Assembly (NCBI GenBank): GCA_035464675.1
Contig: DATHSA010000054.1
Span: 7,998 to 71,997, forward strand
Origin: Acidimicrobiia bacterium
GTDB taxonomy: Bacteria; Actinomycetota; Acidimicrobiia; Spongiisociales; UBA11373
Reading direction: 5' to 3'
Length of the DNA stretch: 64,000 nucleotides
The notes beneath the pieces were generated by a model, which saw nothing but the letters and a program-made list of their open reading frames with translations, searched no databases and was not told the DNA's origin. Made by a program: the position numbers and the translations under genes. Numbering within the stretch: position 1 is the stretch's first letter; each line of letters begins with the position of its first letter. Below, piece by piece: positions 2,821-46,967 of this stretch.

Positions 2821-3390
2821 TCACCCCTCGAGATAGAGGCCGTTCTCCTCGATGTACGCGTACACCGGTTCGCGCACGAAGAAACGAATGCTCCTGCCTG
2901 CGGACCGCCGCCCGCGCAGCATCGTCCCGCTTATGGCGAGTTGGGGTACATCGAGCCATCTGACGGTGGCTCCGGTCGCCTCGACGGCTGCTCGCTCGAC
3001 CCCCGGACGCGGCATGACCGCAACGACGACCCGGTCCATGAAGTCGTCGACGCGGTGCCAGGACCCGAGCCCGGCGGCGGCATCGGCTCCCAGAATCAGG
3101 GCAACCTCGTCGCCGGCGAATTCCTCGAGCGTGTCCACCGTATAGGTCCACCCATCGCGTTGGACCTCGCGATCGTCGGCTTCGAAGTAGTCGACCCCCT
3201 CGACGGCCAGACTGGTCATCGTCCATCGGTGACCGGCTGGGCTCACCTCCCGCTCCGCCTTCTGCCAGGGCGCTCCCGCCGGGATGAAGGTGACGACGTC
3301 GAGCCCCAGCTCGCGATAGGCCGCCTCACCCGCCACGAGGTGGGCCCAGTGAGGCGGATCGAAGGTTCCCCCGAGGATTCCGCGGCGCAC
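2821..3390 (-). CDS. nadD: Nicotinate-nucleotide adenylyltransferase
   Basis: GILGGTFDPPHWAHL motif. GTG at 3390 gives the usual short N-terminus (VRRGILGG...). The longest ORF start (3483) would overlap the upstream gene by 59 nt, so the start is uncertain. Confidence 0.85.
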   Translation of the reverse strand: MRRGILGGTFDPPHWAHLVAGEAAYRELGLDVVTFIPAGAPWQKAEREVSPAGHRWTMTSLAVEGVDYFEADDREVQRDGWTYTVDTLEEFAGDEVALILGADAAAGLGSWHRVDDFMDRVVVAVMPRPGVERAAVEATGATVRWLDVPQLAISGTMLRGRRSAGRSIRFFVREPVYAYIEENGLYLEG

Positions 3391-3424
3391 GCCGGGGAGG
3401 ATAGGGGTGCGTGAGACCTGGCAC

Positions 3425-3868
3425 TCACCCTGCCGGGGCCAGCCTGACCCCCGGACCCGGTGCGAAGGACCCGCAGGTCGCACCCTCAGGATTCAGGTAG
3501 AGATTCCCCACCCGCAGCGAGAAGTGGACCGCCGGTGTCCCGTGGTCCAGACCCGAGGTGCCCACGACTTCTCCCCGTGAGACCAGGACTCCCTCCTCGA
3601 CAATGCGACCGCCCAGGTACGAGTACGAAGTGCGCACCGCGCCGCCGTGGTGAATCGTGACGCTGCTCCGGCCACCCACCTCGCCCGAGAAGGTCACGAT
3701 CCCGGATGCGGCCGCTCGAACCGGTGTGCCGATGGCCACCGCCAGATCGATACCCCAGTGCCCCCCGTAGGAGCCCTGCGGGGCGTAGGGCGCGACCACT
3801 GGCCCTGAGACTGGAAGGCCGAGCAGGCACGGCCCCGGAAGCAGTGCGACGAGGAGGACGATGGCCAC
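3425..3868 (-). CDS. Small secreted M23/LytM-domain protein, probably catalytically degenerate
   Basis: GTG start. N-terminal hydrophobic segment. The HWGID motif is present, but the second metal motif reads AVHFS instead of HxH. Confidence 0.7.
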   Translation of the reverse strand: MAIVLLVALLPGPCLLGLPVSGPVVAPYAPQGSYGGHWGIDLAVAIGTPVRAAASGIVTFSGEVGGRSSVTIHHGGAVRTSYSYLGGRIVEEGVLVSRGEVVGTSGLDHGTPAVHFSLRVGNLYLNPEGATCGSFAPGPGVRLAPAG

Positions 3869-3917
3869 CCAGTGAAAGATATGGGCGACCTGCGACGAGG
3901 GGAAGGGAGTAGCTCGT

Positions 3918-3948
3918 CAGTCGCCAGTCACCAGTCACCAGTCACCAG
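3918..3948. repeat. Heptanucleotide tandem array CAGTCRC x4.4
   Basis: cagtcgc cagtcac cagtcac cagtcac cag, read directly. Intergenic between the response-regulator stop and the M23 start. Confidence 0.9.
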
Positions 3949-3977
3949 CAGGATGCGTCAGACCCCGCGGGCGCGTC

Positions 3978-3998
3978 TTGCCAATTGCCAATTGCCAG
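3978..3998. repeat. Heptanucleotide tandem array TTGCCAA x3
   Basis: ttgccaa ttgccaa ttgccag, immediately followed by the hairpin at 4003-4023. Confidence 0.85.
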
Positions 3999-4002
3999 TC
4001 GC

Positions 4003-4023
4003 GGGACGAGCGAAGCGAGTCCC
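4003..4023 (-). terminator. Stop-codon-abutting hairpin with GCGAAGC core
   Basis: GGGAC-GAGCGAAGCGA-GTCCC. Its last nt is the first nt of the TAG complement (4023-4025) of the response regulator. The same 13-nt core recurs at 46945-46957. Confidence 0.5.
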
Positions 4024-4409
4024 TACGCGATCGCCTCGGTGGGGCCGGCGAGCAGGCCGAGCGCAACACTGCGGAGATCGTCCGGACGGAACGGCTTGGT
4101 GAGGAACGCATCGGCACCGCCGCGGTCGGCGCGCTCCCTGGTCTCCTCCTGGGCATGGGCGGTGAGCACGAGCACCTTCATCGCCCGGGTGCGCGCATCT
4201 GAGCGAATGCCATCGAGCACCTCCCAGCCGTCCATCCTGGGAAGGCCGACGTCGAGGATGAGGAGATCGGGTTGCGTGGTGAGCGCAGCCTCGAGACCTG
4301 TTGGGCCGTCGGAACGGGTCTCGACCTCCACGCCCGCAGGGCGCAGGCACACCGAGATGAGCCGCTGTATGACGGCGGAATCCTCGACGACCAGTACACG
4401 CTGAGCCAC
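4023..4409 (-). CDS. Stand-alone CheY-like receiver-domain response regulator
   Basis: VLVVEDS...DLLILDVGLPRMDG...VLVLTA...FLTKPF are canonical receiver motifs. 128 aa with no output domain. GTG start. Confidence 0.9.
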   Translation of the reverse strand: MAQRVLVVEDSAVIQRLISVCLRPAGVEVETRSDGPTGLEAALTTQPDLLILDVGLPRMDGWEVLDGIRSDARTRAMKVLVLTAHAQEETRERADRGGADAFLTKPFRPDDLRSVALGLLAGPTEAIA

Positions 4410-4490
4410 TTCACCAGACCTTCGTGTGACCTCGAGACAGGTATCGACTCGGCATCCGTCGCCCTTGAGAGGATCAGGGTCCGGCGCTCC

Positions 4491-5918
4491 CTACACCAGC
4501 CTCCGCACGGGACGCGTCGTTGGAATGGCCACCCGCTCCACGAAGCGCTCCAACTGACGAAGGTTGCGCACCTCGTGGACCTCGTCGCAAGCCTCGGCGT
4601 AGACACCCATCACCGAGTCGCCGGTGTCCCAGTAGCGGCGTCGCTCGGGATTCAGCCAGTACAGCGACCGCGCCGCGGAGGCGATTCGCACCAGGGCGCC
4701 CGGGTTCGGGTCGTGATAGTTGGAACGAGCATCGCCGGTGACGATGACGACCGTCCGCGGCGTGATGGCGTCGAAGTACTCGTCGGCGAACGTCCCGAAC
4801 GCGTTGCCGTAGTCGCTGTGTCCGTCCAGCCACACGACTTCGGCCTCGGTCCCAACGCGCTTCATCGCAACTGCGAAGTCGACCCCGGGGCCGAAGAACC
4901 GGGTCACCTCGTCGATCGTGTCGATGAACGCGAACGTGCGCACCTTGCTCAGCTGGGATGCGATCGCGTGCACCAATTGCATGGTGAACCGGGCGAATGT
5001 CGCCACCGAGCCGCTGATGTCGGTGAGCATCACGATCTCCGGCCTTCCCGGTCGGGGTGAACGGAAGCGAGGGTCGACGGGCACCCCGCCGGTCTGAAGT
5101 GACGAGCGAACCGTCCGTCGGACGTCGAGCCGTCCGTCGCGGCCCCGGCGCCGGCGTCGCGCCAGCCGGGTGGCGAGCTTGCGCGTGAGAGGATGCACTG
5201 CCTCTTCGATCCGCGACAGGTCCTCACGAGTGGCGGTGCTGAGATCGATGTCCTCGACCAGCGGACGGCGCAAGGTGCGAGCGACCGCCGACCGGCCCCG
5301 GTCGACGACCAGACGGCGGCGGATCTCGGCTCGGACTGCCTCCCGGAACTCCTCGATTCGACGGTCGACCTCGTCGCGCGTCAGTCGGATCTCGATGGCC
5401 GAAGGCTGCTCCGGTTCGAGATCCCCGCGGAGCCGCTCCGACAGGTCTTCGAGATCGAGCCGACGGAGCACACGGTACAGGTAGTAGGCACCCCCGACCG
5501 GGCGGCCCGGCTCCATACCGGCCAGTCGGGAGACGGCGAGCCGGGCGACCGCTTCCATGAGCCCGTGGTCTCCATCGCGCAGTGATGTGAACAATGCAGC
5601 GACGAGGTCGTCGACATCGCCCTCACCGGCACCGGTGCCCCCGCTGCCGGCCAGTGCCCGCATGTCCTCCTCACGACGGCGTTCTTCATCCGCACCGGTC
5701 GGTGGTGTGAGGGCAAAGAATGCCTCGAAGGCAGCCTCGAACGCATCGACATGGCGGGCGCTCTTGACGAGCGTCGCCCCCAGTGCCGCCTTGAGCGCGG
5801 GTCGGGATCCGATCTCGACATGTTCGAGAGCCCTCGCTGCATCGACCGTCTCGACCATCGAGACCGGGATGCCCGCCTCCCGCAACTCACCGACGAATGC
5901 CGCGAGAAAGCCGGCCAT
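4491..5918 (-). CDS. VWA domain protein, CoxE-like
   Basis: 475 aa. The C-terminal VWA region (IVMLTDISGSV...VVIVTGDARSN) and the N-terminal helical region are typical of CoxE-type partners of MoxR ATPases. Its ATG overlaps the MoxR stop by 1 nt. Confidence 0.8.
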   Translation of the reverse strand: MAGFLAAFVGELREAGIPVSMVETVDAARALEHVEIGSRPALKAALGATLVKSARHVDAFEAAFEAFFALTPPTGADEERRREEDMRALAGSGGTGAGEGDVDDLVAALFTSLRDGDHGLMEAVARLAVSRLAGMEPGRPVGGAYYLYRVLRRLDLEDLSERLRGDLEPEQPSAIEIRLTRDEVDRRIEEFREAVRAEIRRRLVVDRGRSAVARTLRRPLVEDIDLSTATREDLSRIEEAVHPLTRKLATRLARRRRRGRDGRLDVRRTVRSSLQTGGVPVDPRFRSPRPGRPEIVMLTDISGSVATFARFTMQLVHAIASQLSKVRTFAFIDTIDEVTRFFGPGVDFAVAMKRVGTEAEVVWLDGHSDYGNAFGTFADEYFDAITPRTVVIVTGDARSNYHDPNPGALVRIASAARSLYWLNPERRRYWDTGDSVMGVYAEACDEVHEVRNLRQLERFVERVAIPTTRPVRRLV

Positions 5919-6781: not shown

Positions 6782-6801
6782 CGTGAGGATTGTACGGTCG
6801 A

Positions 6802-6843
6802 CCCGTTACCCGTTACCCGTTTCCCGTTGCCCGATACCCGTGT
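6802..6843. repeat. Heptanucleotide tandem array CCCGTTN x6
   Basis: cccgtta cccgtta cccgttt cccgttg cccgata cccgtgt. Intergenic between the obg stop and the MoxR start. Confidence 0.9.
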
Positions 6844-6866
6844 CAGCGACACCCGGGCAGCCGATT

Positions 6867-6901
6867 GGTGACGGGCGACCGGCGACGGGCGACGGGCGAC
6901 G
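6867..6901. repeat. Heptanucleotide tandem array GGYGACS x5
   Basis: ggtgacg ggcgacc ggcgacg ggcgacg ggcgacg. Ends 6 nt before the obg stop-codon complement (6907-6909). Confidence 0.9.
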
Positions 6902-8448: not shown

Positions 8449-8940
8449 TCAGGACTCCTTGTCGGACGACTTTGCTGCGGTCTTCTTGGCCGTGGTCTTC
8501 TTGGCCGCAGGCTTCTTGGCCGTGGTCTTCTTGGCCGCAGGCTTCTTGGCCGTGGTCTTCTTGGCCGCAGGCTTCTTCTCGGCGGGCTTCTCCTCCTCCG
8601 ACGAGTCGGTGTCCGCCTTCGCCGCCTTCTTCTTCGGCGCCTCGATCTTCACGACCTCAAGCGTCGTGTACTTCTGGCGGTGGCCGCCGCGGCGACGGTA
8701 CCCCGTCTTTGCCTTGTACTTGAAGATATCGACCTTGTCTCCGGCAGACTCGCCGACGACCTTGGCGGTCACCTTGGCGGATTTGAGCTCGTCGCGGTTC
8801 GAGTACACCTTGCCCTTGGCATCGACGACGAGGAGCGGCGTGAAGGTGATCTCGCCGTCCTCGCGCACGCGCTCTACATCGATGACATCGCCTTCGCGTA
8901 CCTTCGTCTGCTTGCCGCCCGAGCGGATGATGGCGTACAT
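8449..8940 (-). CDS. rplU: 50S ribosomal protein L21 with long Lys/Ala-rich C-terminal tail
   Basis: ATG 8940 gives [23 protein letters not shown].... About 60 aa of tail follow: ...[32 protein letters not shown]. Confidence 0.92.
8475..8578. repeat. 30-bp tandem repeat x~3.4 inside the rplU 3' coding region
   Basis: The unit cgtggtcttcttggccgcaggcttcttggc is perfect at 8491-8520 and 8521-8550 and near-perfect at 8551-8580. It encodes [10 protein letters not shown] units. Confidence 0.9.
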
Positions 8941-8983
8941 GGTCAGAGGTCCTTGAAGAGAGGGAACGATGGGATCATAGCGG

Positions 8984-9004
8984 GAGTCACCAGTCACCAG
9001 TCGC
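8984..9004. repeat. Heptanucleotide tandem array SAGTCRC x3
   Basis: gagtcac cagtcac cagtcgc, the same unit family as 3918-3948. Followed by gggtCCCGGGCgac gagtgacgggc. Confidence 0.8.
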
Positions 9005-9027
9005 ACGGGTCCCGGGCGACGAGTGAC

Positions 9028-22188: not shown

Positions 22189-22262
22189 CAGCGCTCGTCA
22201 TCATCGTGGAGCGAGTGTAGAGCACGCGGGCGCCAGACGCAGTCGGCTCTACCCTGCACCGG

Positions 22263-23450
22263 ATGACCGAACCCGGCCCGGAGCGGCGCAACCGCGAACT
22301 GGAGCGATTCCTCGAACCGGAGCGGTTGACCATCCTGCGAGCCCTCCCCGTCGTCGTCGCCGTCACAGTCGCCATCGCAACCATCGTCGCCATGGTGGTC
22401 CTGCGGCCCACAGGGGCGGAGCGTCCGGATCTCTCGGAGATCGGGATACCCCGCTTCGTCTACGACGCCGAGGTCACCGCAGTCGAATCCCGGCCATGCG
22501 CCGGCACCACCGACGTTCCCTGTGTCCTCGTCAGCTTCCGGTTGGACGAGGGGCCTGACGCGGAAAGCACCGTCGCGTTCGAGGGAGTGGTCTCCGAGAC
22601 CTCCCCCTCGTTCTCACCGGGCGACGACGTCGTCCTCGCCTACAACCCCGATGCCGACCCGGCGTTCCAGTACTCGTACTTCGATCGTCAACGCAGACCC
22701 GTGCTGCTGTGGGCGGGAATCCTGCTCGTGGTGGTGGTCATCGGGATGGCACGGCTCCGCGGCGTCACGGCATTGCTGGGATTGGGGGCAAGCGTCGTGG
22801 TCATCCTCCTCTTCGTGGTGCCGGCGATCATCGATGGACGCGAACCGGTGGCAGTCGCCATCGTCGGCGCCGCAGCGATCGCCTATCTCGCCCTGTACAC
22901 CGCCCACGGCTTCAGCCGCATGACCACGGTCGCCTTGCTGGGGACTCTGGCGGCGCTGGCGCTCACCGCCGTCCTCGCCGCCGTCTTCATCGCGGCGGCC
23001 CGCTTCACAGGGTTCACCGAGGACGTGTCCTTCATCCTCACGGCTGCCAGCTCCATCAACATCCGCGGGCTTCTCCTGGCCGGGGTGGTCCTCGGCAGCC
23101 TGGGGGCCATCGACGACGTGACGGTCACCCAGGCTTCGACGGTGTGGGAGCTACGGGCCGCCAACCCGACGATGTCGAGACTGCGCCTGTTTCGAGCGGG
23201 CATGCGCGTGGGCCGCGACCACGTGGCGAGCACCGTCAACACGCTGCTCCTCGCCTACGCGGGCGCCGCCATGCCACTACTGCTCTTCTTCGTGCTCGCC
23301 GGCCAGTCGCTCGGAACCTCCCTGAACAGCGAAATCGTCGCCATCGAGGTGATCCGGACAGTCGTCGGAAGCATCGGCCTGGTGATGGCGGTCCCGTTCA
23401 CGACGTGGCTGTCGGCGTGGATGGCCGACGACTCGGCGGCGCCTCACTGA
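22263..23450 (+). CDS. YibE/F-like polytopic membrane protein
   Basis: N-terminal TM plus an extracytoplasmic domain, then 6-7 TM helices. The motif LGAIDDVTVTQASTVWEL resembles the YibE/F family. Recognition is from memory only. Confidence 0.6.
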   Translation: MTEPGPERRNRELERFLEPERLTILRALPVVVAVTVAIATIVAMVVLRPTGAERPDLSEIGIPRFVYDAEVTAVESRPCAGTTDVPCVLVSFRLDEGPDAESTVAFEGVVSETSPSFSPGDDVVLAYNPDADPAFQYSYFDRQRRPVLLWAGILLVVVVIGMARLRGVTALLGLGASVVVILLFVVPAIIDGREPVAVAIVGAAAIAYLALYTAHGFSRMTTVALLGTLAALALTAVLAAVFIAAARFTGFTEDVSFILTAASSINIRGLLLAGVVLGSLGAIDDVTVTQASTVWELRAANPTMSRLRLFRAGMRVGRDHVASTVNTLLLAYAGAAMPLLLFFVLAGQSLGTSLNSEIVAIEVIRTVVGSIGLVMAVPFTTWLSAWMADDSAAPH

Positions 23451-23460
23451 GGGGAGGCCG

Positions 23461-46911: not shown

Positions 46912-46940
46912 CGAATCGCGAATCGCGAATCGCGAATCGC
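46912..46940. repeat. Heptanucleotide tandem array CGAATCG x4
   Basis: cgaatcg x4 perfect, directly followed by the hairpin at 46941-46961. Confidence 0.92.
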
Positions 46941-46961
46941 GGCCCGAGCGAAGCGAGGGCC
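46941..46961 (-). terminator. Hairpin with GCGAAGC core after ftsX
   Basis: GGCCC-GAGCGAAGCGA-GGGCC, 7 nt from the ftsX stop complement (46968-46970). The core is identical to 4008-4018, with compensatory outer-stem changes. Confidence 0.5.
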
Positions 46962-46967
46962 AATCCA

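Follow-up and report, generated by a model that had tools for sequence, protein, structure and literature searches.

The 154-bp spacer between a gene for a CheY-like response regulator and a small M23 peptidase gene is most probably filled by a chimeric copy, devoid of a gene, of a composite repeat that is dispersed in this genome and its relatives, and not by a switch for either gene. The modules of the spacer belong to families, their hairpin-array-TAG order recurs, modules are replaced between species, and variants spread within arrays. Copies of the composite repeat in the genus, one of uncultured Actinomycetota, number from dozens to more than 100. In our reading, the spacer is a copy of this fast-evolving repeat that the genome tolerates; the main rival is a generic stem-loop effect at the 3' end of the upstream transcript. 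For the CheY-M23 locus itself the result means very little: one candidate riboregulator or terminator is removed.

The CheY-M23 spacer and its neighbourhood

The window (the whole stretch of 64,000 nucleotides that was analysed, positions 7998-71997 of contig DATHSA010000054.1, or C54) belongs to assembly GCA_035464675.1 (G000; 2.13 Mb, 68% GC, 83 contigs, 94% complete). The genes of the region are all on the minus strand, in the order rplU, rpmA, obg, an AAA ATPase gene, a VWA/CoxE protein gene, the CheY-like REC gene, the spacer (3869-4022), the M23 gene, and then nadD and rsfS (Pfam CTP_transf_like and RsfS). An orthologue of the REC gene was present in 29 of 31 relatives. The features of the locus are as follows.

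3425-3868, minus strand: small M23 peptidase gene (Pfam Peptidase_M23, E 6e-18)
3876-3881, minus strand: probable -10 box TATCTT of an M23 leaderless promoter, 7 nt ahead of the GTG at 3868
3918-3948, plus strand: heptamer array CAGTCAC (TRF: period 7, 4.4 copies, score 55)
3949-3977, plus strand: 29-nt centre between the arrays (read directly)
3973-3981, plus strand: inner junction GCGTCTTGC, on the inner border of the class-2 array
3978-3998, plus strand: class-2 array TTGCCAA (TRF at 3978-3997: 2.9 copies, score 40)
4003-4023, plus strand: REP-like "GA hairpin" GGGAC-GA-GC-GAA-GC-GA-GTCCC (match to model R1 at 4001-4025, 35.3 bits; this copy belonged to the training set of the model)
4025-4023, minus strand: TAG stop of the REC gene (plus-strand letters CTA at 4023-4025)
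4023-4409, minus strand: CheY-like single-domain response regulator, REC (Pfam Response_reg, E 5.6e-25)

Direct reading and TRF placed the hairpin, both arrays, the GCGAAGC heptamer, the 154-bp spacer and the base shared with the stop codon where the preliminary description had put them. The letters that it quoted as minus strand, GCGAAGC included, are those of the plus strand and are antisense to both genes. On the plus strand, 3918-3948 reads CAGTCGC, three times CAGTCAC and CAG, while 3978-3998 reads twice TTGCCAA and once TTGCCAG, with TCGC at 3999-4002. The 29-nt centre holds the palindrome CCCGCGGG (3964-3971) and TGCGTCAGA; the latter is also present in the centre of another element (C76), and this weak similarity of one 9-mer is suggestive of homology between the two centres. 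The junction GTCT(C)TTGC recurred at C32:36861, C59:47011, C66 and C20, and 33% of the occurrences of TCTCTTGC were 15 nt or less from an array, compared with 5% for TCTTGC and a background of 0.95%. No ORF was found between the arrays at 3918-3998, so that the spacer is not itself an IVS-like PF05635 cassette.

In the GA hairpin, an outer stem of 5 bp is followed inwards by a GA/GA internal loop that is invariant, a GC stem of 2 bp and a GNA loop, and the last base of the hairpin (4023) doubles as the first of the complement of the stop codon. Its RNA fold had a predicted energy of -9.9 kcal/mol for the plus strand and -7.8 kcal/mol for the minus strand. The order in the sense (minus-strand) RNA is UAG-GGGAC-UC-GC-UUC-GC-UC-GUCCC, (UGGCAAU)x3 and (UGGUGAC)x4. 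Since GCGAAGC (4010-4016) is on the template strand, it is absent from the mRNAs of CheY and M23, and any role of it would require single-stranded DNA or an antisense RNA. The genome contains 600 copies of this heptamer, compared with about 497 expected, and the window contains 17.

These folds bear on the main rival explanation, which we consider unlikely. According to it, the spacer is an RNA-level 3'-end element whose hairpin (or array stem, where the arrays are complementary) terminates the upstream transcript, shields it or is a cleavage site of RNase III, and the VWA/AAA/CheY transcript is insulated from M23-nadD-rsfS in the manner of REP elements and 23S IVS stems. However, the mRNA has the weaker UC/UC hairpin, the two arrays of the spacer are not mutually complementary, and the RNA folding check that had been proposed revealed no special fold, the whole spacer folding no better than its shuffles (z = -0.15). 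No terminator-like site was found in 3300-4700, where the hairpin is followed by GCGAC-UGGCAAU and no U-tract, although intrinsic terminators of actinobacteria are often without U-tracts, which counts for a 3'-end element. A scan of 3000-5000 with Rfam gave only sub-threshold matches (best 15-18 bits vs gathering scores of 40-69).

As judged from the sequence, the M23 gene is probably transcribed from a leaderless promoter of its own (TATCTT, 7 nt, GTG at 3868); a TANNNT hexamer was located 6-9 nt ahead of an in-frame M23 start in 8 of 16 orthologous spacers, and no sigma-70 promoter consensus was found at the locus. Such a promoter downstream suits the view of the spacer as a 3'-end element or insulator. 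The position of the CAGTCAC array, at about -50 to -80 from the proposed start, also raises a second rival, which we regard as very improbable: that this array is a protein-binding or phase-variable copy-number module that tunes M23, nadD and rsfS. The array is just upstream of the putative -10 box, its copy number differs among species, and heptamer and other SSRs near promoters lead to phase variation in other bacteria (PMC12721329). However, it is located upstream of the -35 region, where changes of spacing matter little, and its unit is different in each relative.

Heptamer arrays of the host genome

TRF found 301 period-7 arrays of at least three copies in G000. The corresponding counts were 5 for period 8, 10 for period 5 and 3 for period 10, so that period 7 outnumbered period 8 by 60-fold. 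With genes called by a crude GC3-based method, 213 of the 301 arrays were located entirely between genes, while repeats of periods 6, 9 and 12 were mostly coding. The dominant family, class 1 (unit CCCGTYN), comprises 157 arrays. Mismatches within class-1 arrays amounted to 1-3% at positions 1, 2, 4 and 5 and to 9%, 7% and 20% at positions 3, 6 and 7, respectively, which shows that the decay is not uniform along the unit and makes position 3 its second most variable position. These values indicate a constraint on C1, C2, G4 and T5 that recognition by a factor would fit better than pure neutrality.

Class 2 comprises GC[AG]AT[TA]N units (for example CGCAATT, GCGAATC, CGTATCG and TTGCCAA), and its unit AATTGCC forms 8 arrays genome-wide. 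The two arrays of the spacer had been described as unrelated to each other, but both belong to genome-wide unit families: TTGCCAA in family phase is GCCAATT, and CAGTCAC in the family phase CCAGTCA is the class-1 unit CCCGTCA with a C-to-A change at position 3.

At least two arrays were present in 42 of 158 array-bearing spacers, commonly as a C-rich arm followed by a G-rich near-complement. Many of these pairs are inverted, with the potential for stems of about 30 bp, which counts for a 3'-end element, but their arms mismatch at the variable positions, which counts against it. The orientation of the arrays relative to gene direction was unbiased genome-wide, and arrays were equally frequent in convergent spacers. 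This lack of strand polarity argues against a simple sense-RNA signal, and both observations speak against a promoter module.

Array lengths peaked at 30-31 nt for units with or without G3 tracts. The G-quadruplex as the cause of about four units was rejected for the CheY-M23 spacer: its TGGCAAT and TGGTGAC units have GG only, so that a three-tetrad G-quadruplex is impossible, while class-1 arrays of the genome do have G3. As a general account of the four units the G-quadruplex is weakened, since arrays without G3 share the same peak.

The pattern CCCGTNN x4 had 111 occurrences in G000 and none in G001 and G002, two genomes of the same genus. Samples of 59-80 kb contained 9-20 period-7 arrays in G001, G002, G005 and G009, and 11 kb of G003 contained 7; an 80-kb sample of G008 contained none.

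Other spacers of the window carry such arrays. The spacer between obg and the AAA ATPase gene (6801-6901) is filled by an inverted class-1 pair (ACCCGTT x5.9, 28 nt, GACGGGC x4.6); the corresponding spacers of G001 and G002 have no arrays, and that of G003 shows nothing beyond a degenerate periodicity of 7 nt (GCTCATC/GCTCATT). An AGTCACC x2.6 array (8985-9002) at the 5' (upstream) end of rplU (L21) overlaps the listed ORF 8449-9006, and its unit is identical to that of the CAGTCAC array of the CheY-M23 spacer. The spacers upstream of rplU in G001, G003 and G009 have arrays as well, each with wholly different units. A 15/30/45-nt tandem repeat inside the L21 ORF (8479-8591), with period-30 copies 100% identical, encodes a lysine/alanine-rich, histone-H1-like extension (weak Pfam HC2 match).

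A hairpin family attached to the arrays

Inspection of all class-2 loci revealed a GA hairpin on their outer side, and a class-2 array is the constant neighbour of this hairpin. When searched with a regular expression requiring pairing, G000 contained 12 hairpin copies directly following class-2 arrays. The adjacency recurs at dozens of loci in the sister genomes. The modular arrangement is therefore not random slippage, as the preliminary description had argued. The family has the form GGCC-GA-GC-GNA-GC-GA-GGCC. Its outer stem of 4-5 bp covaries (GGCC/GGCC, CCCC/GGGG, GCCC/GGGC, GGGAC/GTCCC) while the GA..GA is invariant; one inner pair was changed (GC/GC to AC/GT), and the loop of 3-4 nt varied between GAA, GCA, GGA, AAA, GTCA, GCCA and GAAA, being mostly G-N-A. 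These pair statistics are partly circular because the copies were gathered by a search that required pairing, and the independent support comes from array adjacency and copy numbers. The invariant GA/GA and GNA positions indicate a constraint, into which recognition by some factor would fit better than pure neutrality. The GCGAAGC core of the spacer is present and flanked by GA/GA as had been noted, but it is not a special conserved signal, as the loop varies in the family and the count of the heptamer is near expectation.

A covariance model, R1, built from 14 copies of G000 and 2 of G001, gave the following numbers of matches.

G000 (own genome): 24
G001 (same genus): at least 104
G002 (same genus): at least 84
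G003 (same genus): 28
G007 (other genus, same family): 22
G009 (other genus, same family): 14
25 other relatives (other genera, same family or order): 0-9

The counts of most other genera are at background level. The hairpin at 4003-4023 is significant only as a member of this family. Composites ordered like the CheY-M23 spacer (class-1 C-arm, 33-44 nt, TCTTGC, class-2 array, hairpin) were found at C32:36861-37015 and C59:47011-47136. Hairpins also occurred in tandem and inverted clusters and in three-fold higher-order repeats of about 95 nt.

A second copy of the modules is present in the window at 46912-46963, where CGAATCG x4.3 is directly followed by the hairpin GGCCC-GAGCGAAGCGAG-GGCC; this hairpin matches R1 at 46939-46963 (35.9 bits), and a convergent gene has its stop 6 nt away. 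Locus L093 (G001:C25:30300-30919) has three head-to-tail units of about 95 nt, each with a hairpin, a short array, a centre and an array, which amounts to a BIME-like higher-order amplification of the composite. The G001 spacer orthologous to 22229-23456 of the window has a variant hairpin, GGGGCG-CTT-CGCCCC, after class-2 arrays, so that the hairpin partner of class 2 itself exists in subfamilies.

On the opposite strand the hairpin reads TAG-GGCC-TCGC-TNC-GCTC-GGCC-(GCAATTN)n. The search for a stop-hairpin-array pattern that had been proposed showed that the pattern recurs: in 5 of 13 copies of G000 the hairpin had the TAG stop of a long ORF at a distance of 0 or -1 nt, and among 20 loci sampled from G001, G002 and G009 there were 13 TAG stops and one TAA stop within -1 to +3 nt. 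With TAG at 30% of stops, 13 TAG of 14 corresponds to P ~2e-6. The base ahead of the TAG abutting the hairpin was a G in about two-thirds of the cases (hand count), which is not far above the usage of G at third codon positions. That the hairpin begins 0 or -1 nt past stop codons at many loci favours a 3'-end element.

The same counts bear on a third rival, coincidence, in which a palindrome that arose by chance and two slippage products of separate origin came together in one spacer. GCGAAGC near its expected frequency would agree with chance, as would the abundance of 5-bp stems in DNA of 68% GC. However, the hairpin-array adjacency at 12 loci of G000 and at dozens in sister genomes, the excess of period 7 over period 8 and the association with TAG leave coincidence with hardly any probability.

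No Y1_Tnp/RAYT gene (PF01797) was found in G000-G003, G007 and G009 (MAGs 88-98% complete), while control genomes were positive. No reverse transcriptase (RVT_1, PF00078) was found in G000-G003 (MAGs 88-98% complete), which leaves a DGR- or telomerase-like origin unsupported. At this completeness, a gene that the scans failed to find may only have escaped assembly.

Turnover of the orthologous spacers

The CheY-M23 synteny is kept across the family but the content of the spacer is not, as follows.

G001: AGTCTCC x4 and a perfect 11-bp palindrome
G002: AGTCTCC x2
G003: CGTTGCC x4
G009: two long arrays
most other genera: no arrays

Among the compared orthologues, only the G000 spacer has the hairpin. 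The idea of a functional device belonging to the CheY/M23 locus fails under the refuting condition on orthologous spacers that had been set beforehand, since the three same-genus spacers have no hairpin and have other arrays, and arrays differ or are absent in the rest; the missing hairpin counts equally against a 3'-end element. The orthologous spacers have only the -10 region in common, and the other spacers along about 55 kb of synteny (72-85% nucleotide identity) showed equal turnover. This remodelling was so complete that it left no clean empty site from which target duplications could be inferred. The position of the CheY stop is identical in the hairpin-free G001 and G003 (TAG) and G002 (TAA), which shows that the hairpin joined an existing TAG and did not supply it.

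Comparison with G009 showed a variant spreading inside one array: its orthologous array is (GGTGACG)x7 followed by (GGTGACT)x4, and this G-to-T is the same change that separates the CAGTCAC array from class 1. In G001 and G002 (L003 and L002), the perfect 11-bp palindrome CTTGGCCGGCC-TCC-GGCCGGCCAAG is located 35-70 nt past the CheY stop, after the AGTCTCC array.

The reading of the spacer as a copy of a composite repeat would divide it into four modules: the 21-nt REP-like hairpin hard against the TAG stop codon, the class-2 array (GC[AG]AT[TA]N)n, a semi-conserved junction and centre, and a second heptamer array that is a one-base derivative of CCCGTYN. The arrays would gain, lose and homogenise whole 7-nt units by slippage or gene conversion, and the modules would arrive through some copying process with a preference for the ends of genes that stop in TAG. 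No function specific to CheY or M23 would belong to the element; the upstream transcript would gain at most a generic 3' stem-loop, and transcription of M23-nadD-rsfS would begin at a leaderless promoter of their own, on the downstream side of the arrays.

PF05635 genes bracketed by heptamer arrays

A side result on PF05635 genes is a more useful outcome than the CheY-M23 locus itself. At C56:8851-9310 of G000, an inverted class-1 pair encloses a gene for a four-helix-bundle protein (23S_rRNA_IVP / TIGR02436), and the second PF05635 gene of G000 (IVP-2, C78:8220-8790) is the centre of a class-2 composite whose inner junctions, CGACAGAG and TCCGTCG, are those of gene-less elements. The two genes themselves span C56:8943-9257 and C78:8319-8630. 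This bracketing of IVP genes, as IVS stems bracket them, is a further point for a 3'-end element. Avd, a DGR protein, is a homologue of this family (PMC10053308). Both PDB relatives have five chains per entry.

We examined 44 PF05635 loci from genomes of the order, the phylum (Actinomycetota of 38-68% GC), Rhodospirillales, Deinococcus and Clostridia. A 7-8-nt array was present within 140 nt upstream in 32 of the 44 loci, downstream in 34 and on both sides in 26, and flank arrays were 19-fold more frequent than in the rest of the same loci. The two flank units were inverted with at most one mismatch in 11 of 18 comparable pairs. Each lineage has its own unit, heptamer or octamer, around its PF05635 genes, and G008, the genome without arrays in its 80-kb sample, has ATTCGCA x11.7 and CGAATCG x9.3 around its single PF05635 gene.

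The accB-accC interval of Xanthomonas campestris, X. citri and Stenotrophomonas (L183, L184 and L185, outside the 44 loci) also contains a PF05635 gene. Its upstream flank, CGGGAAT x4.3-4.4 (x3.9 in X. citri; ~1429-1459), is the GGGAATC repeat of Rehm et al., and its downstream flank, CCCATTC x4.3 or CCATTCT x5.1 (~1843-1872), is an approximate complement that makes an inverted pair. We found no description of heptamer arrays as arms of PF05635 cassettes in the literature searched, and the PF05635 gene is not mentioned by Rehm et al. (PMC4692102).

Dispersed period-7 arrays numbered 15 in 399 kb of PF05635-positive genomes and 2 in 400 kb of negative genomes (10 genomes each). This is a trend only, and the view that the presence or absence of PF05635 strictly predicts whether a genome is rich in arrays was rejected. 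In three lineages, the units of the dispersed arrays match those flanking the PF05635 gene in the same genome. The bracketing is an association and not a mechanism. A tentative extension, which we hold to be rather doubtful, is that bacterial heptamer repeats, including those of the spacer, the roughly 300 others of G000 and the GGGAATC repeats of Xanthomonas, are the arms of an IVS-like PF05635 cassette, that gene-less pairs and single arrays are its non-autonomous derivatives, and that a pentameric protein makes, maintains or uses the arrays in trans. The bracketing gives the heptamer repeats of cyanobacteria and Xanthomonas, a decades-old question, a testable protein partner.

Comparison with known systems

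The 23S rRNA IVS with a PF05635 / TIGR02436 ORF (Avd-like; PMC10053308) likewise has an ORF of this family between inverted repeat arms. The CheY-M23 spacer differs in having no ORF between its arms, and the PF05635 cassettes of G000 differ in being located between protein genes and not in rRNA. Repeats of 7 nt are known from the STRR heptamers of cyanobacteria. Other such systems are the G-rich heptameric SSRs GGGNATC / GGGGAYT of Xanthomonas and Nostoc (Rehm et al. 2015, PMC4692102) and the TAACTGA repeats of Beggiatoaceae (MacGregor 2015, PMC4679880). The two arrays of the spacer differ from the G4-forming SSRs (Rehm 2015) by the lack of a G3 tract. The arrays of G000 resemble heptameric SSRs in their 7-nt tandem units, intergenic enrichment, preference for about four units, inverted pairs and length differences among related species, but they differ from them by their many unit families and their attachment to a REP-like hairpin.

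The d(GCGAAGC) or GNA-triloop DNA mini-hairpin is known from biophysical work. The GA hairpin resembles it in GC-GAA-GC flanked by GA/GA, and most members of the family have a G-N-A loop closed by C-G, but the loop is not fixed across the family.

The REP/BIME elements (REPINs) of Enterobacteria and Pseudomonas and the SMAG elements of Stenotrophomonas are known repeats built on short palindromes. The GA hairpin shares with REP and SMAG a GC-rich imperfect palindrome of about 21 nt with tens to hundreds of intergenic copies. It also shares with them the frequent position a few bases from stop codons and the occurrence singly and in tandem and inverted clusters. The TAG that abuts the palindrome on one strand at many loci may correspond to the conserved GTAG located 5' of REP palindromes. 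The GA hairpin differs from these elements by its invariant core of tandem GA/GA and a GNA triloop, which is not the REP consensus, by the absence of a detectable RAYT/Y1 transposase, by its joining to heptamer tandem arrays and by the confinement of the family to one genus and a few neighbours. A hairpin joined to heptamer arrays and TAG stops is REP-like but undescribed, and its presence in a lineage in which no RAYT gene was found raises the question of how such repeats spread.
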